A stretch of DNA of 64,000 bases. It comes from Candidatus Aminicenantia bacterium (GTDB taxonomy: Bacteria > Acidobacteriota > Aminicenantia > UBA2199). Position 1 is the stretch's first letter. Each line of letters starts with the position of its first letter. The stretch lies in contig CBDDBX010000037.1 of NCBI GenBank assembly GCA_965225955.1, forward strand, positions 308 through 64,307, read 5' to 3'. Shown piece after piece: positions 1,066 through 46,094 of this stretch. A program made the translations under genes and the position numbers. A model generated the notes under the pieces. It searched no databases. It worked only from the letters and a program-made list of their open reading frames with translations, and was not told the origin of the DNA.

Positions 1066-1121
1066 GTTAAGAGTTGTTAACCAGCTCATTTACCCTCCGT
1101 TTAAAAAAAGGAGAAAGTTGT

Positions 1122-28582: not shown

Positions 28583-28852
28583 CTATAGCTTTTCGTAGAT
28601 CTTTTTGCGGTGCCCTATATGAATTACTGTGATGATTAGTTTATCATCCTCTTTATTGAAAATAACTCTGTATTGGCCTACTCTTAACCTGAAATATTCA
28701 TATTTCCCTTTAAGTTTTTTAATGTTGTTTGAAGTTCCCTGAAAATCTTCTGCAAGGGATTTCAGTTTTACGGCAATGAGTTTCTGATAAGAACGCTCTA
28801 TTCTATAAAACTCTTTTTCTGCTTTTTTTGTAAATAGTAGTTTGTATTTCAC
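28583..28852 (-). CDS. RelE/ParE-family toxin
   Basis: IKKLKG..FRLRVGQYRVIF..IGHRKKIY. Confidence 0.9.
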   Translation of the reverse strand: MKYKLLFTKKAEKEFYRIERSYQKLIAVKLKSLAEDFQGTSNNIKKLKGKYEYFRLRVGQYRVIFNKEDDKLIITVIHIGHRKKIYEKL

Positions 28853-29085
28853 AGTTCAAGGTTGTTAAAAATATCCTCAGCAGGAACCAGTTCTTCTTTT
28901 CCATCTTTGAGATCTTTCATTCTTTTGTCTGCAATTTGTACGTCAATAGCATCAAAGTAGAAGATGAGAGCTTTTTCAACAATGTGGCTCTTCTTCTCTT
29001 TAAGTTCTTCAGAAACATAATTAAGTTCTTTCAAAATATCCTCGTCAATAGTAAAAACTGCCTTTGGTCGCCCCATTTTTTGCAC
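28849..29085 (-). CDS. Ribbon-helix-helix antitoxin
   Basis: AVFTIDEDI..KKSHIVEKAL; overlaps the toxin start. Confidence 0.8.
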   Translation of the reverse strand: MQKMGRPKAVFTIDEDILKELNYVSEELKEKKSHIVEKALIFYFDAIDVQIADKRMKDLKDGKEELVPAEDIFNNLEL

Positions 29086-29170
29086 CTCAAATCTATACTT
29101 TTATATATATAATTATATAGATAAAAAATCAAATCAAAATATCTCATACCTGATTAATTTAGATCTTTTA

Positions 29171-29290
29171 GTTTTAAAATTGTTACAAAACGACATTTAT
29201 CTTTAGAAACAGTTATAGAATGGAGTTTTTCTCAAAAAATGATTATAAATCGATATGTTTCTTAAAAAGCAGTTATATAGGGGTAGAATT
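29171..29290. repeat. Degenerate 30-bp-period tandem array, copy 1
   Basis: (G/A)TTA cores at 29182, 29212, 29242 and 29272, each after an A-run; CGA(C/T)AT at +9 in two units. Confidence 0.6.
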
Positions 29291-29381
29291 TCGTTGCACG
29301 ACTGGCAAAGGCATGACATTGATGCTCTCTTTACAATCGACCTTAACAATACAACCGTTTCTGATCAGTAGGAATTGTTTG

Positions 29382-29608
29382 AGATAAACAGAAATCCCCT
29401 CCTTCTCTGCATGAGCAGTGAGCTTGCGAACAGCGATTAATTGCGGAGATGGGAGAAAGCGTTAGCTTTTCACCTTATTCATAAAAGGAGGGGTGACCGG
29501 GGAACGAGGTCGGGGTGGTATTAGAAAGTCCACTAAGCCTTAAGGTAGAAAAACCTCCTGCACAATTTTATAAAAGCCAAACAATAGTAGAGACGCATCC
29601 TTGCGTCT
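29382..29608. repeat. Composite repeat, inverted relative to 40544-40983
   Basis: Reverse complement of about 40781-40983, plus the REP-like GTAGAGACGCATCCTTGCGTCT (29587-29608) matching 40544-40565. Confidence 0.9.
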
Positions 29609-29725
29609 GATTCCGAAGATAAAATTGAGTGAATTATTGATGTTAACCCTTTATCGTTTTGAACAAAATTTGATTGTTATTGCATTTTTGTATGACTTGT
29701 AATACAAATGTTGTAGGAGGTAAGC

Positions 29726-29941
29726 ATGTCTACATTAAGTGTGAGATTGCCTGATGAGCTCAATAAACGCCTTGAAGATCTGGCAAAAAAGAGTAGAAGA
29801 TCTAAAAGTTCATTTATTAAGCAGATGATTGAAGAGAAACTTGAAGATTATGAAGAAGCATATCGTGCATTCGAAAGGGTTAGTGATAAAAATGCAAAGT
29901 ATGTAACAACTGAAGAGTTGGAGAAAGAACTTGGTTTTTAA
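29726..29941 (+). CDS. RHH (CopG/RelB-like) antitoxin
   Basis: LSVRLPDEL..LAKKSRRSKSSFIK; overlaps the toxin. Confidence 0.88.
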   Translation: MSTLSVRLPDELNKRLEDLAKKSRRSKSSFIKQMIEEKLEDYEEAYRAFERVSDKNAKYVTTEELEKELGF

Positions 29942-30191
29942 GGTTTTATGGGATACCAGGGCTTTAAAGGATCTGAAAAAAATTGATAAAGAAGCAGCCA
30001 GAGTAATTGTAACCAGAGTAAAGCAATATCTGGCTGAAGATCCTTTCTATTTTGGAAAGCCTTTGAAAAAGCAGTTCAAAGGGTTATATCGTTACAGGTT
30101 TGAGAATTACAGAGTTATATATGCAATTGAGAAAGAAAAATTAATAATCAAAGTTGTTGCCGTAGGGCACAGGAAAAATGTATATAAATAG
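29931..30191 (+). CDS. RelE/ParE-family toxin
   Basis: GKPLK..GLYRYRFENYRVIY..VGHRKNVY. Confidence 0.9.
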   Translation: MVFKVLWDTRALKDLKKIDKEAARVIVTRVKQYLAEDPFYFGKPLKKQFKGLYRYRFENYRVIYAIEKEKLIIKVVAVGHRKNVYK

Positions 30192-30438
30192 GTTTTTCCT
30201 GTTAAAGAATAGCAGCACAGATTTAAGTAAGGTAAACAAGAAGTTCCTCCCTTCAAGTACAAAGTGAAAAGCTATTCCTTCGCAAGCGTATTACTCATGC
30301 ATAGTCTCTCGCATCCAAAGATTCTTCCTTTAATATAAAGTCTTACAGTTATTCACCCACACCTGTGTTTGTCCGTGTTTGTCATTGTTAGTCTGTTCTC
30401 TTTGTGTACCTTAAAAACAGTCTGCCAATCGCCCCAAC

Positions 30439-30516
30439 CTTGACACACATCCCACCATCTGCTCAAATAAAATCGTAAGAATTATTAATACAAAAGGTTT
30501 AAGAACCTTTTGTATT
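30439..30516 (+). promoter_or_regulatory. 67-bp promoter-like element (duplicated at 34928-34994) ending in a 13-bp hairpin
   Basis: TTGACA-17-TCAAAT; AATACAAAAGGTT-TAAG-AACCTTTTGTATT; one mismatch versus the second copy. Confidence 0.7.
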
Positions 30517-30588
30517 GACTTTGGGATGAGGATTAGTGTAGTAATTATTTGATTTGTAAAGTTTGAGTTAGTTTGTTTGGAGAGAATT

Positions 30589-31140
30589 ATGAGAAAATTG
30601 GTTCTGTATTTGGGGTTAACTTTACTCATTTTGTCGACTGTTGTTTCGGTTAAGCTTTATCTTGATAACCAGCATCTATTGGAAGCGTTTCCTATATTGA
30701 TTCAAAATGAGAGAATACCGTCTTTCGATGTAATTGATACTGATGCACAAGATTACAGTGAAGAGTCGTTGAATAAAGGAATAAATGCTGTTTTTATTTT
30801 TAAAAAACCCTGCTCTTTCTGTAGTGACAATATGCTCTATTGGGGGAGAATCGCCAGAAGGTTTACAGAGGCAGGTGGTAGAGTTTTTGGTGTAGTTTTA
30901 GGCAATCCTGACGAAATGTTCAGGTTGAAAGAAAAAGTCGGAGATGAATTTATACCATGCTCACCCAACAATGAAGTAGAGTTTGTCAAAAATATGAGAA
31001 TTAAAATGAATCTTGAGCAAACTTTGATAATAAACAATGGAAAAGTTGCTATGAGTAAGCTTGGCGCTCTGTCAGGTAATGACTTTATAGAGGTTATCAA
31101 GGTTTTTAATAAATTGAAAGGAAAGGGTAATGAGAAATAA
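30589..31140 (+). CDS. Membrane-anchored thioredoxin-fold (redoxin/TlpA-like) protein, module 1
   Basis: N-terminal TM helix; IPSF; AVFIFKKPCSFC (CxxC); QTLIINNGKV. Confidence 0.7.
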   Translation: MRKLVLYLGLTLLILSTVVSVKLYLDNQHLLEAFPILIQNERIPSFDVIDTDAQDYSEESLNKGINAVFIFKKPCSFCSDNMLYWGRIARRFTEAGGRVFGVVLGNPDEMFRLKEKVGDEFIPCSPNNEVEFVKNMRIKMNLEQTLIINNGKVAMSKLGALSGNDFIEVIKVFNKLKGKGNEK

Positions 31141-32217
31141 GTCGGTTTTTTTTAGTGGTTGTACATTTGATTGTGACGGGTTTTTTACTGAGTAAGATTG
31201 ATGTCGTTAAAAGCCCGGTTATAACTCATAAAGAGACGGGAATCTCTGACCTGATAAAGGTTGGCAAAATTCCAGCTGATTTCAGTTCAAAGCATTTTTT
31301 TGCAAGGGCATCCAGAGTACTTGTTGGATCGAATAAATACATATATGTTTATGATGATTTACTGACAAGGTTCTTTGTTTTTAACAAAGAGTATCACTTT
31401 ATTAGCTCATTTTGTAGAGAAGGACAGGGACCTGGAGAATTATCGGCATCTTTTCAGCCAAAATTTTTCAATATTACTTACGATAACAGAATCGTTGTAA
31501 CGGACCAAATGCTGAAACGGTCAATTGTTTTTGATAGTGAAGGAAAAACAATAAAAACGTACAAGTTCATTAAAGAGCTTAATACAGTATATCCTTTTCT
31601 GAAATCCGACCAGTTTTTTATTGGTGCTTCCGGCTCTAAGCATAGATTTGAAAAGATAGTTCTGCTTAACAACAAGTCTAAAACGGTTAAATGTATTGTC
31701 ACAAAAGAAGATAATAGTAAGTTTCTTTTAAAGAGCCCTGCTGAATATATATTGGTTAAAAGTTCCGGCAAGTATGGTAGTGATACAGAGGGGATTTTTA
31801 GAAGATCTGAAAGCATTGCATCCATATAATGTCACAGTAGCCAGATTGACTGAAAATTTAATGGCAGTCTATCTGAATAACTCATCGACTATGATTGTGT
31901 TTAATCAGAGTGGGGAAGTATTAAAGAAACTATCTATCGTTCCTGAATTAGCGCTGGAATATTTGAAAAAGACAATAAAAAAGGATAAGAGGTATGCTAC
32001 GCTCTTCTTCTATTTTATGACTGATATCCATTCAGAGACATTTTTGTTAGGTGCTATCTCAAATAAAGATAAATTTCTCTGGTATAAATTCGATACGTCA
32101 GGGAATCTATTAAAAGTCCTGGCTATTCCTCTGGGAAGCAGGATTATCGGTTATGGGCAGGGTCGCTATTTTTGCAGAGAGAAAGATGACATTATTATAT
32201 ATCGGGAGGAGAGTTAA
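31130..32217 (+). pseudogene. 6-bladed beta-propeller protein, module 1, split by two apparent +1 frameshifts
   Basis: ATG 31130 joins ORF 31155 if T8 (31146-31153) loses one T; ORF 31155 joins ORF 31774 if one base is lost near GAGGGGA (~31790); REGQGPGE motif. Confidence 0.7.
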
Positions 32218-32218
32218 T

Positions 32219-32533
32219 ATGAAGCAGAAAATTTTACTTGTTATTTTACTTATCTGTGCAATTGTGACGGGTATTATTGTTTCTTCAGTTCAAGCACAAG
32301 CTATGTCTGCTATGTCGTGCTACTGTTTACCATCTTTGTCAGAAGTTGCAGCTATATGTGATTATGGGGCTAGAGAGTTTATAGGCGCAAGGCTGGTAGG
32401 ACACAAGTGTTACTATACAGATTGTATTTCCAAATACCAGATTCTGTGTTTACCTGTGCATTCTCCGAAACCCCTGACAGCATATGGTAATTTTGGTAAG
32501 CATTGCATGGGGGATTGCCAGACAGATTTTTAG
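32219..32533 (+). CDS. Secreted Cys-rich small protein (8 Cys in the mature part), module 1
   Basis: GGAGGAG RBS; signal MKQKILLVILLICAIVTGIIVSSVQAQA; CxC...C...CxxxxC...C...CxxxC. Confidence 0.75.
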   Translation: MKQKILLVILLICAIVTGIIVSSVQAQAMSAMSCYCLPSLSEVAAICDYGAREFIGARLVGHKCYYTDCISKYQILCLPVHSPKPLTAYGNFGKHCMGDCQTDF

Positions 32534-32564
32534 TAAATTGTATTCAAGCTCTCACAGTAGCATA

Positions 32565-34081
32565 TTAACTGGAGCTATCAGGTTTAAAGTTTGTCTGAAC
32601 AATCTGTTCCATTCGGATTAATTCATCGTCTGTTAGGAAGTTGAAAAATGATTTCCGTTTTGAAGCTGATAGTTTTCCTCTGTTTTGTAGACAGAATTTT
32701 ATAAAGAGATCTATATAGCGATCCGGTAAGTCCGCGATATCCTGAAGTGATTTTTTGGTTTTATCATAGTTTGTAAGGAAATTGAGTTCATTGTGGAGCT
32801 CTTCCTCAATCGTTAATTTAATGAAATCGTAAAGAGATTCAGCCTGATAAGTAAGATCCATATACTTATACCATTGAGAGGTGTCATTTAATACCTCCAT
32901 TACTCCGAATTCATCAAGAGAGTAATCGGTTACATTGCTGATTGGTTTTGAAAAATGTTCCAGAGATTCGTTGTATTGTGAGTTGTGTTTTAACATTGTG
33001 GCTGATACAGGGAAAATCAGATTATGGGGTATTAAATTGTATTCAGATAAAATATTGTGGATAAGAAATCTGTGAATTCTACCATTTCCATCTTCAAAGG
33101 GGTGAAGAAAAACAAAACCATAGGAAATTATTGCTGCATGAATGACTGGATGTATTCCACCCGATTTCATTATGTTATGAGACTCTATCAACCCTTCCAT
33201 TAGTTGTTTAATATCAGTCGGTTTTGGACAAATGAAATGTATTATTTCTTTTGATACATAACTGTTTCTCCAACATAATTTTGCAGGGTTCTGTAATTGT
33301 CAGCTTTAAATCTGGGGTCAATGATCTGGTTTTGTAGTAGTATAAGATCGTTTTTGTTACAAAAATCCCTATCTTTTGCACTTTTCAGAAGCTGAGTGAA
33401 TTTTTCAGATCTTCTAATATCAGGTGATATGTTTTCGATTTCAAAAGATGATTTTGTCTCCTTTCCATAAAGATAGTTAAGTGATCTCTTTATTATATCC
33501 TGATGGAAAGTGTCAATTATTTCTTTTGATTTCTGATATATATCAATCTTTTCTCTGGATTTCAGATGCTCTGTTTTTCTTATAACAGGGCAGAAAGAAG
33601 ATGGGCCGGGGAGGTTGTTTATTATCTTTTGTCTTTTTATACGTGATCCATTTGATATTGTATAATATCTCTTCTCTTCAAGAATCTCTGTATAGTTTCC
33701 TTTTGTTAAAGGAGGAATATTTAGAATCCTGGCTGTGAGAAATTCATATAAGAACCATATCTTTCTTGTATATTTGCTGGTAGGTTTGCTTTTTATATAT
33801 GTTTCCAGTTCAACCGGATTAATTCGGTTAAATATTAGATAAAGAATACTGAGATTGATTCCATCGTATTTAATTGCAAACTCCAGATGATCTGTATAGT
33901 TATCACCAGGCCAGTAAGTATGTGGATATATTTCCTGAGTTTTATGACGACTCTGTATTGAATGGCGGTTTGCAGTATTTGAAATATAGGAGGTTTTCCA
34001 GTTGGGAATTGTTTTGAGGTTTAATTCTTTTATGAGATAAGTGTAGCCAACAGTTTGTAATTCAGAAATATTTATATTCAT
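32565..34081 (-). pseudogene. Fic-family protein split by a frameshift at about 33250
   Basis: Canonical HPFEDGNGRIHR in the 3' ORF; adding one A to CAAAAG gives continuous YVGETVMYQKEIIHFICPKP. Confidence 0.85.
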
Positions 34082-34090
34082 TCTATTTCC

Positions 34091-34200
34091 TCAGAAAATT
34101 GTTATATTATTTTAAATATAGTTATATTTCGATATAAAGTCAAAAAAATAGTTATTTTTGGATAGTTTTGTTTAAAAATGATTAAAAAAAGAGGTCTCTT
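34091..34200. repeat. Degenerate 30-bp-period array, copy 2, upstream of Fic
   Basis: Cores GTTAT/ATTAA at 34121, 34151 and 34181 (extra core at 34101); CGATAT/GGATAG at +9. Confidence 0.55.
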
Positions 34201-34264
34201 TGGAAAAATGCAGGTGTTTCCTTGTAAATTTATTTAAACACCAATTGGAAGATAGATTTATAAG

Positions 34265-34895
34265 GATAACGCTGACGCGTTGCCCATCTCACCTATATTT
34301 TCAGTCATTCACTTCGTTTTCTAAAAGGTGACAGCTACGCTGTGCCCATCTCTGCTATTAATCGCTGTTCGCAAGCTCACTGCTCATGCAGAGACCTTCA
34401 GTGGTGAGAGGTGCTCCAGACGGGTTAGGCATGCCTTAAATATAGTGACAAGCTGTTCTCTCGCAAGCTCATTACTCATGCGGAGAAGGAGGGGATTCTT
34501 CCTGTGTGTTTTTATGACATTCAATAACCCGTTAAACGGGTTTGATATATCAAACCCCTACACGACCATAAGCTTTCCACTTAGTGTGAAATCGTACAGT
34601 TGTTTTTGGTTCCTGCAGAAATTAAAAACAGGCTCCCCCCATACATTCATCCAGGAAATCCGCAGCGTCTCTGAAGGAAGGAAGTAGCGAAGCGAATGAC
34701 GACTAATATCAGAGATGGGCGACGCGCCAGCGTCATCATTAACAAAGGACATAGCTCTCCTCCTGGAGGAGGAGTACCCGAAGAATGAGGGGGAGGAGGT
34801 TATTATGACTTTAATTGCCGGTCATAACAGTACAGCTTTTCAGGTTCAGCAGAATTAAAATAAGAAACGTAGGGTCACAACATGCTGTGACCGTT
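34265..34895. repeat. Mosaic REP-like composite repeat, copy B, with a ~50-bp imperfect inverted repeat (34265-34316 / 34688-34737)
   Basis: Shares modules with the 25123-25468, 29382-29608 and 40544-40983 loci. Confidence 0.88.
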
Positions 34896-34993
34896 TGTTT
34901 GTTAAGGACAAATCAAAACAGACGAGTCTTGACACACATCCCGCCATCTGCTCAAATAAAATCGTAAGAATTATTAATACAAAAGGTTTAAGA

Positions 34994-37747
34994 ATGAGTG
35001 AGATGGTTAAGAAGTGTTTGAGTAAGGTTTTCTGGTATCTGTTTATAGCCTATATCTGGACTGTAGCAAATATTTATCTGATAGATGAGTTTAAGCTAAA
35101 GAGTAAATATTTGAAATTCTTTAAATGGTTGAATGAGGACGGATTATTGCAGATGCCGAACTGGTGGATAATAGTCATCCCTTTGAGTTTGGTAGTTCTT
35201 GGTCTGGTGTCTAAAACTACCTGGCAAAGATTTAAGCTTTGGGGTGATAGAGTAAATAGGGGGCTCTTTCTTGCTTTTTGTTTTAGTGTATCTCATTACA
35301 TAGCTTTATTTCCATATATTGATGAATCTTATATTAGCAATCTTTTTCTGGTTATAGCCTACTCTTTTTATGGATTGTTTATTGTTTCTGTACAACGTGA
35401 AACAAATCGCAGGATTGAAGAAGAAAGGAATAAAAAGGATGATCAATTTACATCAAAAGATTTGTTTGAAAGAGAATTGCTTGCTGAAGATATTTCAAGA
35501 GATATTTGTAACTATGCTAAAGAAAAGTTTTTAAATGTTGCAATATACGGTGATTGGGGATCAGGCAAAACGTTTCTCATGAGAATGTTAAAAGAAAAGT
35601 TTGATAAAAAAAAGATAAATACGGTTTGGTTTGATCCATGGAGATATACGGATTTTAATAAGATGAAAAGAGATCTTATTGTTGAAATAGCTAAATCATT
35701 AAATGGAGATAATCTTAGTTTTATAAAATTTTCAATCTTCATTGCAGAAAAGCTACCATTTCTAAAGTGGGTAGTAGATCTGATTTCAGTTAAGTCAGTC
35801 ATTGCAGGTGATTTTGTTTCATTGCTACTTAATAACTCTACTGATACAGATCAGCTTAAAAAACGTATTGGTAAGCATTTACAAAAATTGAGTAAAACTG
35901 ATTGTGTTTGCAGCGCTAACGGTAATGATAGGAATAGAAGAAATAACGGGAATTTTTCGCTGATAGTTTTCATAGATGATTTAGATAGAAGTAAACCGGA
36001 AATAGTGTATCAATTCTTTGCAGAACTTAACCAACTTCTTGATATAGAAGGATGCTGTTTCATTGCAGGGGTTGATAAGAATAAGGTTAAGTGTATTTTA
36101 AAGAATAAAGGTTTTGTTGATGGAGAGAAATTTTTAGTTAAATTGTTTCCGCTGAAACATGCCCTTGGGATAGTGGATAAGTCAGATGAAAAAATAAAAC
36201 TTATTGAATCAGTTATAAACAATAGAAGTAATAATGAAATTCTGGAAAAGTTGAAAGAATTAGATATGAATCTATTTGATGATAATTTAAGAGATTTAAA
36301 ACAGTTTTTTGAAATTTTTGAAATAAAATTAAAAGGCTTGCTTTCCAGGTGGCAAATTAATGAATTGTCATGGGAGAATGTTCTGCTTGGGTTTTGGATA
36401 AAATTTCATTTTCCAGAACATGTCAGATTCATAAACCTTAATAGATCTAAAATTGAGGATTTAGTGAAAAGTGGTTTCTCTGGGAGAAGACTTGAAGAAG
36501 CATGGAGCAGAGATATGGGAGAAGAGCATAAAGAGGACTTATTAGAAAAAAATAGAGAAGATGATGAAAAAATAGCTGAAGAACTAAAAAAATTCTTTTC
36601 TGATAGGTCCGGTAAATTAAAAAACATCATTAGATATATGAGTAACAGTATGTATGCTACTTTTAATCATCCAGAATTAAGAGTCTTTAATAAGTTGTCA
36701 ATTGTACTTTTGGTAAATTTTTTTGAAGAAGAAAAAAGATTCTATGAAATGAAAAACATGGTTGATAAAATAAAAATGGGAGATATTAGAAAAGATGAAA
36801 TGGTAGATGAGGTAATTCTTTTTATAAAGAATATTGCATTAGAATCTCATCAAAAAGATTTTCTTAAGTACATAATTTATCATAGACGAGATATGTACCA
36901 AATTGCAGATACCGAATTAAGCAATAATAAAAAGCAAGAACGACTTTACTCTAATGAAAACAATAACGTACTCTATTTGGTATCTCAAATTTCGCATGTT
37001 GTTGAGCAGGTCACATATTTCGATAAAGAAGTTTATGAATATTGTTATGGTATTTTGACGGCATATATTGATCATGTTGGTGAACATGGGACTCTTGCTA
37101 TATATAAAGAACACGTTGATGAGAATAAAAAATTATTAATTACTTTTACAGAGCAATTTTCTAAAAGGTCAGATAGAGAGCTTATATGGCTAGTAGATTT
37201 CTTAACGAAGCAATTAGATAAATTGAAATTAAGAAGAGGTGAACCTCGATTTAATGCGGAACTTTACATAGGTTTTATAATGAATTTAAAAAAGCTTACC
37301 GAAGAGTCTTTATTTGTGTTTATTAAAGACAAGCTTTTCCTTAATAAAGATGGATTCATAGGTGGAACAATCTTTCAATATGAAGTGATTGTACAAAGCT
37401 ATGTTTTAATGTTTAATAATAAAGAGTTCTATATTAATTCTGATTTCTTAAGTGGAGTGCTTAAAGAGATTATAGCGAATAAAGCAGAACTAAAAGATAA
37501 TATATTTGAATATTTTTATGCTCTGTTTTATAAACTCAGCGAAAGAAACGATGGATACAAAGAGGATTTTATTAAGAACGTGTATCGGGTTTTCTGGAAA
37601 GATCTATGGATTATGCTATGGGGATCTGACTTGAACTATGATATAAAAGAATTTAATTCTTTACGGGACTATATAAAGGAACTGAAGGCTACTCAGAAGA
37701 TACCACATGATATTTTCCCTGAACCAGATGAAAATCAGAATCTTTGA
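34994..37747 (+). CDS. KAP-family P-loop NTPase with N-terminal TM helices
   Basis: DLFERELLA; Walker A GDWGSGKT; WFDPWRY; Walker B FIDDLDRS; FLVKLF; NLRDLK. Confidence 0.88.
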   Translation: MSEMVKKCLSKVFWYLFIAYIWTVANIYLIDEFKLKSKYLKFFKWLNEDGLLQMPNWWIIVIPLSLVVLGLVSKTTWQRFKLWGDRVNRGLFLAFCFSVSHYIALFPYIDESYISNLFLVIAYSFYGLFIVSVQRETNRRIEEERNKKDDQFTSKDLFERELLAEDISRDICNYAKEKFLNVAIYGDWGSGKTFLMRMLKEKFDKKKINTVWFDPWRYTDFNKMKRDLIVEIAKSLNGDNLSFIKFSIFIAEKLPFLKWVVDLISVKSVIAGDFVSLLLNNSTDTDQLKKRIGKHLQKLSKTDCVCSANGNDRNRRNNGNFSLIVFIDDLDRSKPEIVYQFFAELNQLLDIEGCCFIAGVDKNKVKCILKNKGFVDGEKFLVKLFPLKHALGIVDKSDEKIKLIESVINNRSNNEILEKLKELDMNLFDDNLRDLKQFFEIFEIKLKGLLSRWQINELSWENVLLGFWIKFHFPEHVRFINLNRSKIEDLVKSGFSGRRLEEAWSRDMGEEHKEDLLEKNREDDEKIAEELKKFFSDRSGKLKNIIRYMSNSMYATFNHPELRVFNKLSIVLLVNFFEEEKRFYEMKNMVDKIKMGDIRKDEMVDEVILFIKNIALESHQKDFLKYIIYHRRDMYQIADTELSNNKKQERLYSNENNNVLYLVSQISHVVEQVTYFDKEVYEYCYGILTAYIDHVGEHGTLAIYKEHVDENKKLLITFTEQFSKRSDRELIWLVDFLTKQLDKLKLRRGEPRFNAELYIGFIMNLKKLTEESLFVFIKDKLFLNKDGFIGGTIFQYEVIVQSYVLMFNNKEFYINSDFLSGVLKEIIANKAELKDNIFEYFYALFYKLSERNDGYKEDFIKNVYRVFWKDLWIMLWGSDLNYDIKEFNSLRDYIKELKATQKIPHDIFPEPDENQNL

Positions 37748-37788
37748 ATAAGGGATTGCTAATTATTGCAGCGGATTTTGAGAAGTTA

Positions 37789-38220
37789 TTATATATAGTT
37801 TGTTATATAGTTTGCTAGTAAACTTGCAAAAAATCCTAATATAAACCCGATAATAATACTCCGTATGCGTGATTTTTTTGTAGCTTGAGATATAACACGC
37901 ATTAAAGATTCCGAAGATATTTTAAGAAGAGTTTCATTAGTGTCTTTATCTTTTTTTAATTCATCAACTTGCGATTTCAAATTTTTTAAAGACAACAAGT
38001 TTTTGTTGGATTCAATCTCTAGTTCTTTAACGGCATCTGCTGCATCAATCAAATCCATTCTGATGTTTTCTAGCTTCTTAATACGTTTATCTAGTTGCTC
38101 TTTATTGGTCAGATTTTGCAAATCTATTTCGTAAGTGAGACCAAGTAAACCAATTCTGAGTTTTGATCTTTTGATGTGTGATTTTAGTATATCCAGTTGA
38201 TTTAAAAGTATAGTTTTCAA
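37789..38220 (-). CDS. Hypothetical coiled-coil protein with C-terminal TM helix
   Basis: Heptad-rich middle; IIIGFILGFFASLLA tail; TTG start after GGAGA. Confidence 0.6.
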   Translation of the reverse strand: MKTILLNQLDILKSHIKRSKLRIGLLGLTYEIDLQNLTNKEQLDKRIKKLENIRMDLIDAADAVKELEIESNKNLLSLKNLKSQVDELKKDKDTNETLLKISSESLMRVISQATKKSRIRSIIIGFILGFFASLLANYITNYI

Positions 38221-38279
38221 TTCTCTTCTCCATTAATTTTATATAAACCTCTTTCATTTCATCAGATGGTAATGTTGTT

Positions 38280-38295
38280 GTCAAGGTGGGGGAAT
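38280..38295. repeat. 16-bp direct repeat GTCAAGGTGGGGGAAT, left copy, overlapping a minus-strand -35 box
   Basis: Exact copy at 40520-40535. Confidence 0.8.
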
Positions 38296-38343
38296 CGGTA
38301 CAGAGATGTATGGGGTTGGGTGTTCTTTCAGAGTAGACGCTTT

Positions 38344-38598
38344 TTAGAAATTAGGGCGTCTGGCGCAGGGAATATTAAAACAAATTATCACGTTATTCTT
38401 TTTATACTGGCACTCTATCCTGTAACCTGTGTACCATCCATTTTCGTATCCGCACTGAATCTGTACCGGAGCTGAACGGAAAAAAGGCCATGAGCCTCCC
38501 TTACCAATCTCGTCGCCGGGGTTATGATCAGTATTTGCAAGAACTAAGAGCCCGCTTGCTAAAATTAATGACAAAACAGCCAGAGAAAGTTTTCTCAT
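38344..38598 (-). CDS. Secreted Cys-rich small protein (4 Cys), module 2
   Basis: GGAGG RBS; start overlaps the redoxin stop; signal MRKLSLAVLSLILASGLLVLA. Confidence 0.75.
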   Translation of the reverse strand: MRKLSLAVLSLILASGLLVLANTDHNPGDEIGKGGSWPFFRSAPVQIQCGYENGWYTGYRIECQYKKNNVIICFNIPCARRPNF

Positions 38599-39200
38599 TT
38601 TACCTCCTTAATTATTAAAAAATATTGTGAACAGAATTGGAAAAATGTATCTGCAAACATCTCTGTACCTGGAGTCGGGAGCAGAACAGAAATAATTCTG
38701 TTATTATCCTGTAAAAACATAATTGATGGATGTGTGATACTGTTCAATTTAAAAAAACTATCATTCTGAGGGTAGAATATCGGAGCTTTAATATTAAAAT
38801 TTTTGCGGAATAGTTCTATCTGTGAGGTATTTTGAGTATCTATTATTATGGCACATGAAGTGGATGTATCTGAGGCGTATAGCCTGTTTATGAATGAGAG
38901 TTCTTTCTTAATGCATAAGTCACAGGAACTATTTTTAAAAGCAAATATTAATCTGTAATTTTCAATGCTATGATTACCTGAATCACTTATTAATGGGGGA
39001 TATGAAATACCATGAAGAAGATAGTCGAATTCCTGAGTTCTAATTGATCTGTAATATTGTTGTATAGAGTGGTGCGTTTTATTAAGACTGGTTAACTTTT
39101 TTTGAAGAGTGTTTCTGTCGGAATAGATTTTCAGAAAAGCAGAAACTACGAGTATTATTGCTGCTGAATATATGATTAGTAGACCTCTATTTATCTTCAT
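38595..39200 (-). CDS. Membrane-anchored thioredoxin-fold protein, module 2
   Basis: N-terminal TM helix and coiled coil; LIFAFKNSSCDLC (CxxC); HPSIMFLQDNNRII cis-Pro-like loop. Confidence 0.7.
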   Translation of the reverse strand: MKINRGLLIIYSAAIILVVSAFLKIYSDRNTLQKKLTSLNKTHHSIQQYYRSIRTQEFDYLLHGISYPPLISDSGNHSIENYRLIFAFKNSSCDLCIKKELSFINRLYASDTSTSCAIIIDTQNTSQIELFRKNFNIKAPIFYPQNDSFFKLNSITHPSIMFLQDNNRIISVLLPTPGTEMFADTFFQFCSQYFLIIKEVK

Positions 39201-40360
39201 AAAATCTCCTTTTTGAAGGTGTAGAGTATTATGAGGGGATTATCGCCGGGTTTGAGTTCTATATTGGATAATCTGGGGTATCTGTTTTTTAGTTTATCAA
39301 AATTACTATTATAGGCTACTGCTCCTATGAAGCCTTCTGAACAGGAACCAAAATGGGGGTTAAAGTGGATTGTACTACTGGCAGATGTGAAGCCTGATTT
39401 TGGGAAAAGAATAGCCTTTCTGGTTTTATAGTTTAATAACCAAAGGTTGAAAATTCTCTTCTCCAGCAGATATTCTGTTGCTATCAGGTAGTCACCTGAA
39501 GTTATAAGCCATGCAAATTTGTGGAGATGAAAGTTTATCTTATTTATATCATTAAGTTCCAGATTATCTTTCTTCATTAATTCTGTAACAACTTCTGATT
39601 TATGGGGGAGTAGAAGTTTCACTAGTTTCTGGCTCCCTGTGTCATAAATCGAGATAGATTGCTCAATAGGTGTCAGGTAGAAAACTTTGTCTTTAGTATT
39701 GGCAAAGAAGTTGTGAGGAAGAGAGTAGTATTTGCATGCGGAGCCATCGAACTGATCAAATCCACCAGTTATATTAAAATCCCTGTCCATTATAAGTATT
39801 CTCTTTTTCAAGCTTACTGAATGGTTATCAAAATCTGCTATATATAGAAAAAGATTGTTCTCAACTGAACAGATATCTCTTATCTGCATATCTGTTCTTA
39901 CTTCTTTAACAAGGTTTCCTTCTGCTGAGAACTGCATGATCTTACGCTGACTCAGAATAACTAATTCCCCATTTGAAAGAGAGCAGATACTGGTTATATC
40001 CTGATATTCACCAGGCCCCTGGCCCGGAGTGCCAAAAGATTTTATAAACTTACCATTTTTGTCGAATTTAAAAACTTTCCTGGATTTCTGCCTGTCACAA
40101 ATAAAATATTCCCCTTCAGCAGTACGAATTACTTTGTGTATTATTCCGATTGCTGAATTATCTGATAACTCAGGTTTTATAACTTCTTTTATAGTGAGGT
40201 TATCCATAAAGTGTCCCATCTTTTTTTTTGTGAATTTAATGGAATTGTATTCAAGTTCTGTGTAGCCCTTATTTTCATCACTGCTGCAGTTAATCAGCAT
40301 AAATGCAATGATAATAATTGCAATATAGCTGACGGTGTTTAATCTACCCAACATTCTCAT
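39197..40360 (-). CDS. 6-bladed beta-propeller (DUF5128-like) probable lipoprotein, module 2
   Basis: FKFDKNGKFIKSFGTPGQGPGEY; C-terminal DNPLIILY; possible lipobox LINC. Confidence 0.8.
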   Translation of the reverse strand: MRMLGRLNTVSYIAIIIIAFMLINCSSDENKGYTELEYNSIKFTKKKMGHFMDNLTIKEVIKPELSDNSAIGIIHKVIRTAEGEYFICDRQKSRKVFKFDKNGKFIKSFGTPGQGPGEYQDITSICSLSNGELVILSQRKIMQFSAEGNLVKEVRTDMQIRDICSVENNLFLYIADFDNHSVSLKKRILIMDRDFNITGGFDQFDGSACKYYSLPHNFFANTKDKVFYLTPIEQSISIYDTGSQKLVKLLLPHKSEVVTELMKKDNLELNDINKINFHLHKFAWLITSGDYLIATEYLLEKRIFNLWLLNYKTRKAILFPKSGFTSASSTIHFNPHFGSCSEGFIGAVAYNSNFDKLKNRYPRLSNIELKPGDNPLIILYTFKKEIL

Positions 40361-40495
40361 ATCCTCTTTATTTAAATTGCGTTGGTTACCCTCTATATTG
40401 AGTAGAATCAGGTAGAAAAATCACCTTCTGATATTCTGCCGGAACTTAATATAGCTTTTTACCAACTGTTTATGTTTAACTAATAACCCATTGAA

Positions 40496-40535
40496 TTTAT
40501 ACTTAATGTGAAGTTAATAGTCAAGGTGGGGGAAT
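40496..40535 (-). promoter_or_regulatory. Sigma70 promoter of module 2, with the right copy of the 16-bp direct repeat
   Basis: Minus strand ATTCCCCCACC-TTGACT-17bp-TATAAA. Confidence 0.7.
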
Positions 40536-40543
40536 ATTCAAAT

Positions 40544-41098
40544 AGACGCAAGGATGCGTCTCTACTACTGTTTGTTTTTTATGATTCCTGCTGGTTAATG
40601 AAAATTGTGTTTTTATGATGTTTAATAATTCGTTTAACGGGTTAGACATGCCTAACCCCTACACGACCATAAGCTTTCCACTTAGTGTAAAATTGTACAG
40701 CTGTTTTTGGTTCCTCAAAAATTAATAACAGGATTGGCCCCTTCTATGAATGAAGATGCTTCTGTCTTTTTAGCTGCGATGTTCGGGAGGGTGTTATCTT
40801 AAGGCTTGTTGGACTTTCTAATACCACCCCGTCAGCTGCACAACTTTTCCGGGAAAAGGTTGTTTGCTGCCCCCCCTCCTTTTATGAATAAGGTGAAAAG
40901 CTAACGCTTTCTCCCATCTCCGCAATTAATCGCTGCTCGCAAGCTCACTGCTCATGCGGAGAAGGAGGGGATTTCTGTTTGTCTTATAGTAAATTTGTGT
41001 GACTTGTGTGATCTGTATTGTTTCCATTCGCGTTTATTAGCGTTCCTGTCAGGGCGTAGCCGAAGGCAAAGGCTGATTATTAGCGTGAATTCGCGTTC
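40544..41098. repeat. Mosaic REP-like composite repeat, copy C
   Basis: Inverted copy of 29382-29608 interrupted by the module shared with 25123-25270, then ATTCGCGT/TTAGCGT-type repeats. Confidence 0.88.
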
Positions 41099-41147
41099 TG
41101 ATGATTAGTATTGCTGGTTAAACTGGCGTTTTGTTGTTTGCGGGAGC

Positions 41148-41195
41148 TTAGATTAGAACTTCCTTTTTGAAGGTGTAGAGTATTATGAGGGGATT
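41148..41195 (-). pseudogene. Orphan 3' end of a beta-propeller paralog
   Basis: 35-bp exact match to 39207-39241; reads NPLIILYTFKKEVLI* versus NPLIILYTFKKEIL*. Confidence 0.7.
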
Positions 41196-41403
41196 GGATT
41201 GTGAAGTAGTTTTGCTTTTGACTTTTTGTTTTTATGATAATAGAATAAAAAATAGTGTTAAAACGAATTTAAGTTTAGATTTTAAACTATTTGGGGGAAA
41301 GTTTTGAGGGGAACTTTCTTTGGTGGGTAAAATGAAAATGTACGAAAGCAATCTTAAAAATCCAGAGAAGCTCTATAAAGGTATAATTTCAGGGAGCACT
41401 ATC

Positions 41404-41796
41404 GTGAGAATAGTAGTGAAAGATATTGTTGGTATTAATTGCATTACTATTGATAGTGGGGAAAGTGTTTTTAAGCCTGCTCTAAAGGAACTAAAAAAAG
41501 GCAGAACTGTTATTCTTGATTTTCTGGGAGTGGAGAAATATGCGACACCTTTTTTTAATTTTGCAATTGGCCAGTTGCTGTTTTTTTTTGAGAAAGAAGA
41601 AATTTCTGGATTATTGAAGTTTGATAATCTGGATGAATTGGGAAGGAGAATTGTTGAGATAGTTATTAACAATTCAGAAAGGTACTACAGAGATGAAAGA
41701 TATCGTAAAGCTGTAGATGAAATTATTGGGCACAAATCAGATGAATGGGAGTGTGATTTATGTCCAGAATTTATCAAATCAGAAGCGATGTTATAG
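41404..41796 (+). CDS. STAS-like (DUF4325-type) protein
   Basis: GTG after GGGAG; MRIVVKDIVG..VILDFLGVE..TPFFNFAIGQL. Confidence 0.8.
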   Translation: MRIVVKDIVGINCITIDSGESVFKPALKELKKGRTVILDFLGVEKYATPFFNFAIGQLLFFFEKEEISGLLKFDNLDELGRRIVEIVINNSERYYRDERYRKAVDEIIGHKSDEWECDLCPEFIKSEAML

Positions 41797-42377
41797 ATAT
41801 AAGGAGAGATAAACCAACTATAGATGATTCTTTTCTTATTGATACAAACGTATGGTACTGGTTAACTTACGTTAAGTGCCTGAATGCCAGGCATTATCAG
41901 ATTACGTACTATCCTTCTTATCTGGCTAAATCTATAGAATCTGGTGGGGAACTTTATTATGCGGAGACATCTTTTGCTGAACTATCGCATCTAATAGAAC
42001 GAACTGAATATAACCTCTATTGTACAGAAAGAGAACAGATGCGATTTAAAGATTTCAGGCATAATCTGGCAGAAGAAAGGCAGCACGTCATTGATGAATT
42101 GAAGCTTGCATGGAGGATTGTTGAAATGTGTGCTCAGTGCGCCGAAATAACATTGAATGGAGAACTCAGTAGTAAGTGGTTTGTGGAAATGAGTAAAACT
42201 AAAGTTGATGGATACGATCTTTTTATTCTGGAGACAATGAAGAGTAATAATATTACCAAACTGGTTACAGATGATGGTGACTTCTCAACGGTTCAGGGGA
42301 TTCAGGTTTTCACAGCCAACAGAGGTGTAATCAATGCTGCTGAGGAGCAGGGGAAATTACTGAATCGATATTTGTAA
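41760..42377 (+). CDS. PIN-domain nuclease
   Basis: FLIDTNVW, AE, DGYD and LVTDDGDF acidic motifs. Confidence 0.85.
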   Translation: MSRIYQIRSDVIDIRRDKPTIDDSFLIDTNVWYWLTYVKCLNARHYQITYYPSYLAKSIESGGELYYAETSFAELSHLIERTEYNLYCTEREQMRFKDFRHNLAEERQHVIDELKLAWRIVEMCAQCAEITLNGELSSKWFVEMSKTKVDGYDLFILETMKSNNITKLVTDDGDFSTVQGIQVFTANRGVINAAEEQGKLLNRYL

Positions 42378-44999: not shown

Positions 45000-46094
45000 T
45001 TATTTAATTTGATATTTTATGAGGTGGGGTTCATCATCATTCTCGTTATCTTTTATAGCAGTGAAGAACTCTCTGTTCTGGTTGAATTTCATATTCCGGG
45101 GAGTAATCTTCCCATTTCTGATTTCGACTCTGCTTATGAATTTACCATTCATATCGTATGAATAGAAAGTATTCTCTTTACTGAAAAGAAGAATGTTTCC
45201 TTCAGAATCAGTAACTATTCGAGTGAAATAGGGGTGCATTTCAGGAAAGACAGTGGCTTTTATGAAATATTCCGGCACTTTGGTTGTTGTCCCTTTTCCG
45301 GTGGAAAATCTCATGCCTCCAAAAAAACCGGCTTTATCATCCTCTGTTACTGGTCTCTTCTTAATATTGTGTCTGAATTTTATCTTTTTTTTATTCCGAA
45401 GAATGGTTAGCTCTTCATCTCCATGGAAGCCTAAAACAATATCGTTATTGATGTTCAGGGCGCAGGAAATTTCGGGTGCAAAGGGTTGGGGGTGGTTACC
45501 TCTGGCTGAGTAGGTGTTTAACTTAAGTTCTCTGGTATAAAGCTGCTTCAGCTCATTGAAGTCTTTGTCGTAAATATAGATAGTGCCCCACTGTTTGCCC
45601 ATAGTTTTTCTGGAGCCCATGCTGTAAATATAAATTAAATACTTCTCTTTACTGAGAGGTATCAGATGCTTTATAAAGAGAAATTTACCATGCTTGATAT
45701 TCCTTAAAAAAGAGCCATCTTTTTTAAAAACTGAAGCTTTTCTGCTAGTCATTTCTATGATAGTAAGCTGGTCATCAAAAATAACAGGCCTGGAGGGTCT
45801 CATTAAATCTCCCGGACCTTTGCCTTTTTGCCCAACTACTTTATTAAGTGAGCCGTCTTTGTTAAGTATGAAGAACCTGCAACCTCTGTAATCCACTAAA
45901 AAAACAGTACCTTCCCTGTCTACGGTAAAATAGTTAAAATTAGTTACAAAACTGGTACTTTTCAAATTCTCATTGGTTATGTCCAGTTTTTTTTCAAGAT
46001 TGATGTAACCTCTTTTGTAAAGTTCCTTTAATGGTGTTCCCGCAAAAACCATTAACTGAAGACTTAATAGTAAAATAAGAAATCCGCTTTTCAT
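45000..46094 (-). CDS. 6-bladed beta-propeller secreted protein
   Basis: Signal peptide; GQKGKGPGDL; TVDREG and TDSEGNI blade motifs. Confidence 0.75.
   Translation of the reverse strand: MKSGFLILLLSLQLMVFAGTPLKELYKRGYINLEKKLDITNENLKSTSFVTNFNYFTVDREGTVFLVDYRGCRFFILNKDGSLNKVVGQKGKGPGDLMRPSRPVIFDDQLTIIEMTSRKASVFKKDGSFLRNIKHGKFLFIKHLIPLSKEKYLIYIYSMGSRKTMGKQWGTIYIYDKDFNELKQLYTRELKLNTYSARGNHPQPFAPEISCALNINNDIVLGFHGDEELTILRNKKKIKFRHNIKKRPVTEDDKAGFFGGMRFSTGKGTTTKVPEYFIKATVFPEMHPYFTRIVTDSEGNILLFSKENTFYSYDMNGKFISRVEIRNGKITPRNMKFNQNREFFTAIKDNENDDEPHLIKYQIK

Follow-up and report, generated by a model that had tools for sequence, protein, structure and literature searches.

Thioredoxin-like (Trx-like) domains and NHL β-propellers are fused in a single protein in NHLRC2 and SOQ1, where the redox motif lies at the interface, in the cleft facing the propeller, and the propeller is viewed as a scaffold or binding platform (PMC6107167; bioRxiv 10.1101/2021.03.16.435614). 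In the bacterial genomes examined in the NHLRC2 study, homologues of NHLRC2 had no conserved neighbours (PMC6107167). A recent preprint deals with MauE, which, when taken from two other phyla, is reported to replace DsbB in Escherichia coli through a CXC site; MauD is proposed there as its DsbA-like partner for the six disulfides in methylamine dehydrogenase's (MADH's) small subunit, a route so far argued from E. coli complementation and phylogenetic distribution (10.64898/2026.03.05.709764). The word 'Acidobacteriota' does not occur in the main text of that preprint (10.64898/2026.03.05.709764). Here we analyze a 64,000-nucleotide stretch of DNA, hereafter the window, from a Candidatus Aminicenantia bacterium of the phylum Acidobacteriota (GenBank assembly GCA_965225955.1, contig CBDDBX010000037.1, positions 308 to 64,307 of the forward strand), which carries two three-gene modules, each encoding a CxxC redoxin (RED), an NHL/DUF5128 β-propeller (PROP) and a small secreted Cys-containing protein (PEP).

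An earlier reading of the window, made from its letters alone and called here the sequence-only reading, proposed that a dedicated oxidoreductase folds the Cys-rich peptide, a toxin or signal, and that a cognate propeller acts as its receptor or immunity protein; this proposal is partly supported. It also stated that in Bacteroidota small exported NVEALA (PF14055) proteins are found beside DUF5128 propellers. The proposal of a dedicated oxidoreductase with a cognate propeller is still the best reading and is strengthened by a link to MauE, whereas the prediction bearing on propeller binding gave weak support. In the form that we prefer, and to which we assign a probability of about 0.5, each module is a cassette dedicated to oxidative folding and linked to MauE, and its propeller binds the Cys-rich protein. 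What is new is the MauE link of the cassettes, one mauE gene being translationally coupled to the redoxin gene of a sister cassette.

Two compact modules with exported products

The open reading frame (ORF) map of the window places all six genes and their CSFC, CDLC and GQGPGE motifs where the sequence-only reading had put them. It likewise bears out the eight mature Cys claimed for PEP1 and the four Cys claimed for PEP2, each protein with a signal peptide. The genes are as follows (aa, amino acids).

30577-31140, plus strand: RED1, module 1 redoxin, 187 aa, TTG start (ATG at 30589), CSFC; N-terminal membrane anchor and thioredoxin-like domain
31155-32217, plus strand: PROP1, module 1 NHL/DUF5128 β-propeller, GQGPGE; split in the window by a frameshift at the T5 run 31795-31799
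32219-32533, plus strand: PEP1, secreted Cys-rich protein of module 1, 104 aa with a signal peptide and 8 mature Cys
39197-40360, minus strand: PROP2, module 2 NHL/DUF5128 β-propeller, 387 aa, GQGPGE, lipoprotein-like signal (..MLINC|SS)
38595-39200, minus strand: RED2, module 2 redoxin, 201 aa, transmembrane (TM) helix and thioredoxin fold, CDLC
38344-38598, minus strand: PEP2, secreted Cys-containing protein of module 2, 84 aa with a signal peptide and 4 Cys

Both are compact, coupled units that differ in gene order, as had been described: module 1 runs RED1>PROP1>PEP1 with intergenic gaps of 14 nucleotides (nt) and then 1 nt, and module 2 runs PROP2>RED2>PEP2 with a 4-nt overlap at both junctions. 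The little similarity noticed between the modules is also real, the redoxins sharing 19% identity and the propellers matching at a phmmer E of 0.008, while all-against-all BLASTP detected no similarity between PEP1 and PEP2. Each of the three products looks exported, as had been suggested, with an export signal or N-terminal anchor on every one, and all products of each module are predicted to end up outside the cytoplasmic membrane.

The propeller of module 1 has the position and the GQGPGE motif ascribed to it but is not an intact single frame in the window, where it is represented by two overlapping frames at 31155-31829 (224 aa) and 31774-32217 (147 aa). The window comes from contig C37 of a 93.5%-complete assembly of 3.95 Mb, whose contig C26 carries an intact paralogue of 365 aa with which both halves of PROP1 are colinear. 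The frame changes in the TTTTT run at 31795-31799. A contig from the public run X5 (151 nt, depth 2.8) has one T fewer at this position, and the contigs from run X1, the main match, break at 31798/31804. Shortened by one T, PROP1 becomes a single 353-aa ORF at 31155-32217 that aligns to residues 3-364 of the C26 paralogue (E 1.4e-70). We read the break as a probable assembly error or population variant and not as the mark of a dead module.

The triad recurs within the genome and among relatives

The triad recurs far beyond chance. The propeller family PF17170 matches 34 places in this genome, 29 of them above the cut-off, and an iterated in-genome hidden Markov model (HMM) search gave 40 propeller ORFs. 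There are 12 strong RED homologues (E 4e-56 to 3e-18), of which 11 directly adjoin a propeller and 11 have CxxC in one alignment column; the exception in both counts is a homologue on contig C44 (C44:7220-7771) that has lost the CxxC, has no propeller beside it and is translationally coupled to a 982-aa tetratricopeptide repeat (TPR) Ser/Thr kinase. A further weak homologue, on contig C3, carries CSSC (HMM E 0.0016). With this locus included, the genome has 12 cassettes, each with at least one small signal-peptide ORF of 2-8 Cys, in the orders RED>PROP>PEP, PEP>PROP>RED, PROP>RED>PEP, PEP>RED>PROP and RED>PEP>PEP>PROP>PEP>PEP. The small component is polymorphic, as had been proposed, in that all-against-all BLASTP of 17 small Cys-containing ORFs of the genome yields only four similarity groups. 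Genome-wide, 13 of 22 small Cys-rich ORFs lie within 400 bp, on the same strand, of a propeller or redoxin gene, against an expected fraction of 0.0115 (binomial p 3e-20), under criteria (signal peptide, ≤135 aa, ≥4 mature Cys) that were set after the first cassettes had been seen.

Co-occurrence extends to other genomes, one of the points on which the sequence-only reading could have failed. With a profile built from 10 REDs, matches came from 12 of 40 related genomes, among them 8 of the 24 in the same family. At 18 loci fetched from the matching relatives, the propeller was adjacent in 16 and a Cys-rich signal-peptide ORF was also present in most. When 300 genomes of the phylum were sampled, matches at E ≤ 1e-8 came from only six, each of the same class, and from 0 of 274 others, with at most 11 candidates scored per genome. 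A one-genome-per-species pattern scan for the module-1 RED subfamily returned 13 loci, from records titled Candidatus Aminicenantes, 'uncultured Clostridia', Candidatus Deferrimicrobium or uncultured bacterium; two of these records have peptide sequences that are the same as those of loci in genomes rated as belonging to the window's family, which makes the lineage Aminicenantes-like. RED precedes PROP at all 13 loci and PEP comes next at 12 (90-110 aa, 8-13 Cys), often with overlapping stop and start codons.

The surroundings of these loci are not shared. Among 78 flanking ORFs (≥120 aa) of the 13 loci no family occurs at more than three, and no modifying enzyme or transporter is conserved at the cassettes, in keeping with the earlier observation that the window modules have none. 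The one flanking family common to three loci is a TPR Ser/Thr kinase; such kinases adjoin 3/13 type-1 cassettes elsewhere and the CxxC-less C44 RED homologue here. Across 12 cassettes, pairwise divergence correlates between RED and PROP (Mantel r 0.80), PROP and PEP (0.69) and RED and PEP (0.57; p = 2e-4 for each). Because the divergences of the three components correlate in this way, the cassette is taken to be inherited as a whole unit.

RED is a predicted thioredoxin-fold protein with a proposed link to MauE

RED1 matches the Pfam families AhpC-TSA (E 4.8e-5) and Redoxin (E 0.0016), and RED2 has no Pfam match; the gathering cut-off is reached by neither, RED1 scoring 23.7 bits against the 26 bits set for AhpC-TSA. 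The subfamily of module 1 (alignment A2; mean column identity 43%, both Cys invariant) has 11 members, of which 10 match AhpC-TSA (best E 4.4e-7), five ResA (NCBIfam) and three DsbE at E ≤ 1. Because the Pfam cut-off is missed and yet 10/11 subfamily members match AhpC-TSA, RED is a divergent member at the superfamily level and not a member of a curated family. Compared with PDB sequences, the RED profile has only TlpA/ResA-type chains as its top matches (best E 2.3e-4).

The CxxC of RED2 aligns with that of nine paralogues. An AlphaFold2 model of RED2 from a 10-row alignment (predicted local distance difference test, pLDDT, 71.6) has a helix at residues 5-53, a strand at 82-88 and a helix from 94, with the invariant C93 and C96 at the helix start, in a β-α-β thioredoxin core. 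Foldseek aligns it with ResA, FetE and StoA at E 3.5e-6 to 1e-5 and, with DsbE included, at up to 2e-5, with TM-scores of 0.54-0.60 on the target. The thioredoxin fold foreseen for the CxxC proteins is thereby supported, and RED models as a TM-anchored, TlpA/ResA/DsbE-like thioredoxin fold. The A2 subfamily also has a nearly invariant Gln-Thr (..QT(I/L)..) at RED1 residues ~147-150, an alignment position that we take, without a superposition, to be the usual cis-proline site before the third strand of thioredoxin folds; RED2 and some paralogues keep Pro.

Searches of the 93.5%-complete genome with PF01323, PF13462, PF02600 and PF07884 did not find DsbA, Thioredoxin_4, DsbB or VKOR. MauE (PF07291, cut-off 27 bits) is represented by two genes, on contigs C41 (94.3 bits) and C29 (86.8 bits). 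The CXC-type motifs of the two copies are DCGC/NCGC, with NCGC in the C41 copy. The C29 gene adjoins a rhodanese-like gene. The C41 gene belongs to a cassette of the order PEP(6 Cys)>PROP>RED(CNSC)>MauE, in which the RED stop overlaps the mauE start. Genome G028, of another family, has mauE within a PROP>PEP(8 Cys)>MauE>PEP>PROP>RED-like cluster, and genome G019 has the order PROP>110-aa ORF>MauE. MauE occurs in 24/24 same-family genomes and in 34/41 genomes overall, and so does not separate RED-bearing from RED-less genomes. Four genomes have a second MauE copy, and in three of these mauE lies beside propellers (C41 here, G028 and G019). Neighbourhoods were inspected for 32 of 37 MauE places (E ≤ 1e-15, 41 genomes), namely 29 fetched loci together with C41, C29 and G028:C22; the other 28 fetched loci have no propeller or redoxin within 1.5 kb.

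We favour a role for RED as an oxidant rather than a reductant because DsbA, DsbB and VKOR were not found, MauE is present, mauE stands in sister cassettes and MauE has been reported to act in disulfide formation (10.64898/2026.03.05.709764). RED would then be the cassette's own disulfide catalyst, in the role that DsbA or MauD has elsewhere. Its re-oxidation would fall to MauE, the sole membrane protein found in the genome that can be recognised as a disulfide generator, and RED would make the 1 to 6 disulfides of PEP, perhaps together with those of the Cys-enriched PROP. The propeller would bind PEP, acting as a platform for its folding, a carrier or a cognate partner. We infer the oxidising direction, the identity of PEP as substrate and the binding of PEP by PROP.

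The opposite direction is unlikely in our judgment. RED would in that case be fed by DsbD/CcdA and keep the Cys of PEP or PROP reduced for a metal or cofactor, PEP being the small subunit that bears the cofactor in a periplasmic protein built on the propeller. The closest relatives of RED in sequence and structure, ResA, DsbE, StoA, TlpA and FetE, speak for such a role, as do the DsbD_TM domains present in the genome. DsbA and DsbB were not found, and the titles of related loci name Candidatus Aminicenantes; to our knowledge, Aminicenantes-type lineages are anaerobes that make few structural disulfides. A propeller is combined with a small Cys-rich cofactor-bearing subunit in quinohemoprotein amine dehydrogenase. 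The same pairing of a propeller with a small Cys-rich cofactor subunit is described for MADH in the MauE preprint (10.64898/2026.03.05.709764). Set against these points, mauE, a reported oxidase, is embedded in three sister cassettes. The Cys counts of PEPs are mostly even, with the residues spread along a β-sheet scaffold and not in metal-binding clusters; 135 PEP1 relatives keep only Cys columns, without an invariant Trp, His or Tyr; and no cofactor-maturation gene is conserved nearby.

Diversity of the Cys-rich proteins

Six Cys are invariant across 15 homologues of PEP1, and in every case the gene comes immediately after that of a propeller. From 1.84 billion representatives, a profile search recovered 139 cluster representatives at E ≤ 1e-3, nearly all of 83-133 aa and matched end to end, and a word-based protein search yielded eight proteins that are unnamed or called 'hypothetical protein'. 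PEP1 has no Pfam or NCBIfam match. In the alignment of 135 relatives, the only (nearly) invariant columns besides the start Met are Cys columns, with none of Trp, His or Tyr. The AlphaFold2 model built from these 135 sequences (pLDDT 86.4) comprises the signal helix, a helix at residues 40-49 and three long antiparallel strands. Its best match among solved structures has E 0.067 in Foldseek and Z 4.6 in VIA-align, none reaching Z ≥ 5, and several cystatin-type chains at Z ~3.5 are within noise. PEP1 is a member of an unnamed family with a confident predicted fold and no clear solved relative. Both PEP1 and PEP2 lack a PF14055 match at E ≤ 1, which agrees with the earlier remark that the NVEALA motif is missing. 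No PF14055 protein was found in this genome either, and control genomes likewise gave no match, so this search says little.

These data bear on whether the redoxin might serve the propeller only, the small ORFs being unrelated or not real genes. That RED-linked PROPs have more mature Cys than stand-alone PROPs (mean 4.4, n = 13, vs 2.5, n = 24) and that some PROP+RED pairs have no detectable PEP would fit such an arrangement, for which arylsulfate sulfotransferase, a propeller enzyme with the dedicated Dsb pair DsbL and DsbI, provides a parallel. However, 13/22 of the Cys-rich signal-peptide ORFs genome-wide adjoin cassette genes, PEP1 relatives keep their six Cys across genera and always follow PROP, the 139 PEP1 cluster representatives are nearly all of 83-133 aa and match end to end, and PEP divergence tracks that of RED and PROP. 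We consider the explanation very improbable overall and largely refuted for the module-1 type. Because RED-linked propellers are richer in Cys, the redoxin may serve the propeller in addition to PEP, which fits the picture drawn by the sequence-only reading less well.

The propeller as a candidate binding partner

PF17170 (cut-off 22.9 bits) matches PROP2 at 79 bits (E 4.6e-22) and the N-terminal part of PROP1 at 34.6 bits (E 1.6e-8), and PROP2 also matches the NHL repeat (E 0.0017); the description 'six-bladed' rests on the DUF5128 family name. A profile of 15 type-1 PROPs recognizes solved NHL domains at E 4e-30 to 1e-12, including those of Thin (E 4e-30), TRIM71 (4e-23) and Brat (2e-12), followed by the lyase domain of peptidylglycine amidating monooxygenase (PAM; 4.9e-7), the exported bacterial protein 4raa (4.5e-6), SOQ1 (3e-4) and streptogramin lyases (0.016-0.045). 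All PROP paralogues start with a signal peptide or a lipoprotein-like signal. A tree was built from the 36 PROPs that reach 300 aa, shorter ORFs being left out. Two stand-alone clades are well supported in it and the RED-linked copies sit on long branches; the tree is poorly resolved, with 7/33 inner branches starred and many long branches. The window itself holds a third DUF5128 propeller, a stand-alone paralogue outside any triad and without redoxin or peptide:

45000-46094, minus strand: DUF5128 propeller, PF17170 E 1.2e-10

Complex prediction, proposed earlier as a check on cognate pairs, was run on the PROP and PEP of the C26 paralogue cassette with 15-row alignments. The score lay above that of the best control (0.44 vs 0.01) but amounted to a weak pass ('weak support'): the mark is reached by 58/80 solved complexes and 2/110 mismatched pairs, and it is reached with scores of ≤0.60 by only 7 of the 80 solved complexes and by both of the mismatches. 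Agreement between the runs covers 16% or more of the contacts, and the pLDDT of the partner is 51-57.

The reach of the PROP profile to the PAM NHL lyase domain and to streptogramin lyases raises the thought of an enzyme that modifies or cleaves PEP, with RED handling the PEP cysteines, much as in a locus for RiPPs (ribosomally synthesised and post-translationally modified peptides). A DUF5128 propeller on contig C6, between a radical-SAM/SPASM maturase and a YcaO protein and beside a 58-aa Cys-rich ORF, points the same way. We nevertheless find this improbable. PROP matches NHL domains of the non-enzymatic, binding kind far more strongly, and the columns that are invariant among the 15 PROPs of type 1 (I, P, D, G, G, P, S, P, F, D, Y, G and L) include neither His nor another evident set of metal-site residues. 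For PEP1 the prediction is a folded domain of 70 residues and not a leader–core peptide. The flanks of the cassettes are unrelated between loci, with no conserved maturase or leader-peptidase transporter. PAL-like catalysis by PROP was considered separately and ruled out by the missing invariant His set in the 15 type-1 PROPs. The C6 region (C6:19500-27000) is itself a probable RiPP locus, with a GG motif and a Cys-rich tail in the 58-aa ORF, a CcpM-like maturase (E 4e-79, below the family cut-off), the propeller split into 236 + 115 aa and a 615-aa YcaO-domain protein; its arrangement differs from that of the cassettes.

A role for PROP in handling Cys-rich clients, be it as a chaperone-like platform, a stable partner, a receptor or an immunity protein, fits the precedents, the complex prediction, the Cys content of PROPs, their long branches and the radical-SAM/YcaO locus taken together.

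Genomic setting of the modules

Both modules lie in a low-GC stretch of the window (28583-42377; GC 0.29-0.36 vs ~0.38-0.44 around) that is packed with accessory genes. They encode two toxins of the ParE type with small partners upstream, a fragment of a Fic domain, a KAP-family NTPase of 950 aa that has membrane segments at its N-terminus, and DUF4325 plus a PIN protein. The stretch looks like a variable or defence-type island.

Such surroundings are among the reasons to consider a toxin and immunity system, as in the sequence-only reading, in which PEP would be a secreted, disulfide-stabilised antimicrobial or bacteriocin-like protein matured by RED, and the cognate PROP its immunity protein or receptor. 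PEP is hypervariable and non-homologous between cassettes, whereas RED and PROP are each homologous, and the non-Cys positions of mature PEP diverge fastest (mean identity 24%, vs 39% for RED and 32% for PROP). The long branches of RED-linked PROPs would suit an immunity function, as would the many stand-alone and tandem PROP paralogues, which resemble orphan immunity genes. The PROP–PEP contact has weak in-silico support, and the modules keep company with ParE toxins, Fic, a KAP NTPase and a PIN protein. The sublancin locus, with BdbB, is an example of a bacteriocin locus having its own thiol-disulfide oxidoreductase. We hold the toxin interpretation to be doubtful all the same: no outer-membrane exporter, lysis gene or leader-peptidase transporter is conserved near the cassettes, the stand-alone PROPs form better-conserved clades of their own and are not scattered relatives of cassette PROPs, and the PEP1 model is unlike any solved toxin or defensin (Foldseek E 0.067, VIA Z 4.6).

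Several further features of the region were recorded. A ~480-bp element at 34261-34741 is flanked by 30-nt imperfect inverted repeats (87%) and has internal direct repeats. Its depth in public contigs is 115 vs ~15-25 nearby, with joints from inversions and deletions and with matches in runs that are otherwise unrelated, and it contains no tRNA or Rfam family; it looks like a multi-copy element of the miniature inverted-repeat transposable element (MITE) type. The run X1 contig has one extra T after 33248 (depth 13 of 13), at the junction between the Fic-domain ORF 32565-33200 and a 279-aa ORF at 33242-34081; an indel in the window may have split a single gene into these two. Among the public runs listed for the 9.9-kb region of the modules there was none of RNA, and runs X2 and X3 cover only small parts of it. 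Pattern scans for promoters and terminators gave counts at or under the shuffled expectation. The Rfam scan of the window found only a cobalamin riboswitch, far from the modules, at 869-1040 on the plus strand (64.8 bits, E 9.7e-14) and directly upstream of a 702-aa ORF at 1074-3182.

Discussion

The view of the modules as MauE-linked oxidative-folding cassettes has to be weighed against a number of observations that do not favour it. Neither window module has an adjacent mauE, and mauE lies within a cassette at only 3 of the 37 MauE places, of which 32 were inspected. No match to the MauD model at E ≤ 1 was obtained for RED1, RED2 or the 11 A2 members, in searches whose HMMER filters drop many weak matches. 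The genome has two matches to DsbD/CcdA-type membrane domains, which make a reducing role of RED equally feasible. TlpA/ResA/DsbE-like proteins are mostly reductants in characterised systems, and the reductive alternative stays in contention because, among characterised proteins, these are related most closely to RED. CxxC is missing from the RED copy next to the G028 cluster and from the C44 homologue. The binding prediction, a weak pass, was obtained on the C26 paralogue pair rather than on a window pair. A word-based search for longer relatives, which is weak evidence, found no fused RED–PROP protein of this RED family. About 25 propellers of the genome are stand-alone, and PROP+RED pairs without detectable PEP exist, PEP being present at only 3/8 loci of one set. 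PEP2, finally, found only itself among 5.8e9 proteins in a word-based search and matched 0/150 other genomes of the class; with no homologue, it is probably a real gene by position, coupling and signal peptide only.

If the cassettes do fold their Cys-rich proteins oxidatively, they would be physiological client cassettes for the MauE disulfide route in a lineage without detected DsbA, DsbB or VKOR. They would also be a genetically split, substrate-linked counterpart of the Trx-like + NHL module of NHLRC2, which is associated with FINCA disease, and of SOQ1, which acts in photoprotection; the co-encoded Cys-rich protein would become the obvious candidate client, and the role of the propeller would become testable. 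At least one new family of secreted Cys-rich proteins of ~100 aa would be added, whose members could be antimicrobial or signalling proteins in an uncultured group. More tentatively, and with less than even confidence, the cassettes may form a lineage-specific diversification system. In a lineage without detected DsbA or DsbB, extra MauE copies and private thioredoxin-fold partners would have been recruited for families of unrelated, fast-evolving, disulfide-locked secreted mini-proteins, each docking on its own fast-evolving NHL propeller, to give a bacterial cognate ligand–receptor or toxin–immunity repertoire built on a Trx+NHL core, which in eukaryotes is retained in fused form as NHLRC2 and SOQ1.

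Comparison with known systems

A description of the propeller–redoxin–Cys-rich triad was not found in the literature covered, which does not include subscription journals and supplements. One close likeness in gene content is to the mau cluster, where a propeller, a small secreted Cys-rich protein with multiple disulfides, a thioredoxin-fold CxxC protein and MauE are encoded together, as they are in the sister cassettes of C41, G028 and G019. MauB, the MADH heavy subunit, is a β-propeller, and MauA is the light subunit. The cassettes differ in that PROP belongs to the NHL/DUF5128 type and not to the MADH heavy chains, and in that they are multi-copy with unrelated PEP families. RED gives no MauD match at E ≤ 1, the PEPs lack the invariant Trp needed for the tryptophan tryptophylquinone cofactor, and neither a MauG-like gene nor any other mau gene is conserved around the cassettes. 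A MADH-like enzyme was considered as a candidate and ruled out, there being no invariant Trp in 135 PEP1 relatives and no other mau genes.

The cassettes resemble NHLRC2 and SOQ1 in that a thioredoxin-like CxxC domain and an NHL propeller work together in a compartment that is oxidising or extracytoplasmic, which for SOQ1 is the thylakoid lumen. The PROP profile reaches SOQ1 chains at E 3e-4. In contrast to these fusions, the cassette genes are separate, CSFC/CDLC replaces CC(I/V)NC, and there is no C-terminal n-DsbD-like domain. Unlike the NHLRC2 homologues, the cassette genes are also tightly linked to a Cys-rich partner.

The sublancin locus (sunA with bdbA/bdbB) offers another likeness, a disulfide-containing secreted product encoded beside a dedicated thioredoxin-fold oxidoreductase, and SdbA and BlpG are further cases of secreted-peptide loci having their own thiol-disulfide oxidoreductase. 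Loci of the sublancin type differ in having known exporters and immunity genes, no propeller, and short peptides as against the ~70-residue folded domains of the cassettes. The NVEALA–propeller pairs likewise differ, in that PEP1 and PEP2 have no PF14055 match and that those pairs belong to Bacteroidota and the cassettes to Candidatus Aminicenantes. We rate the cassettes as a variant of two known kinds, the dedicated oxidoreductase–client loci and the Trx+NHL modules.

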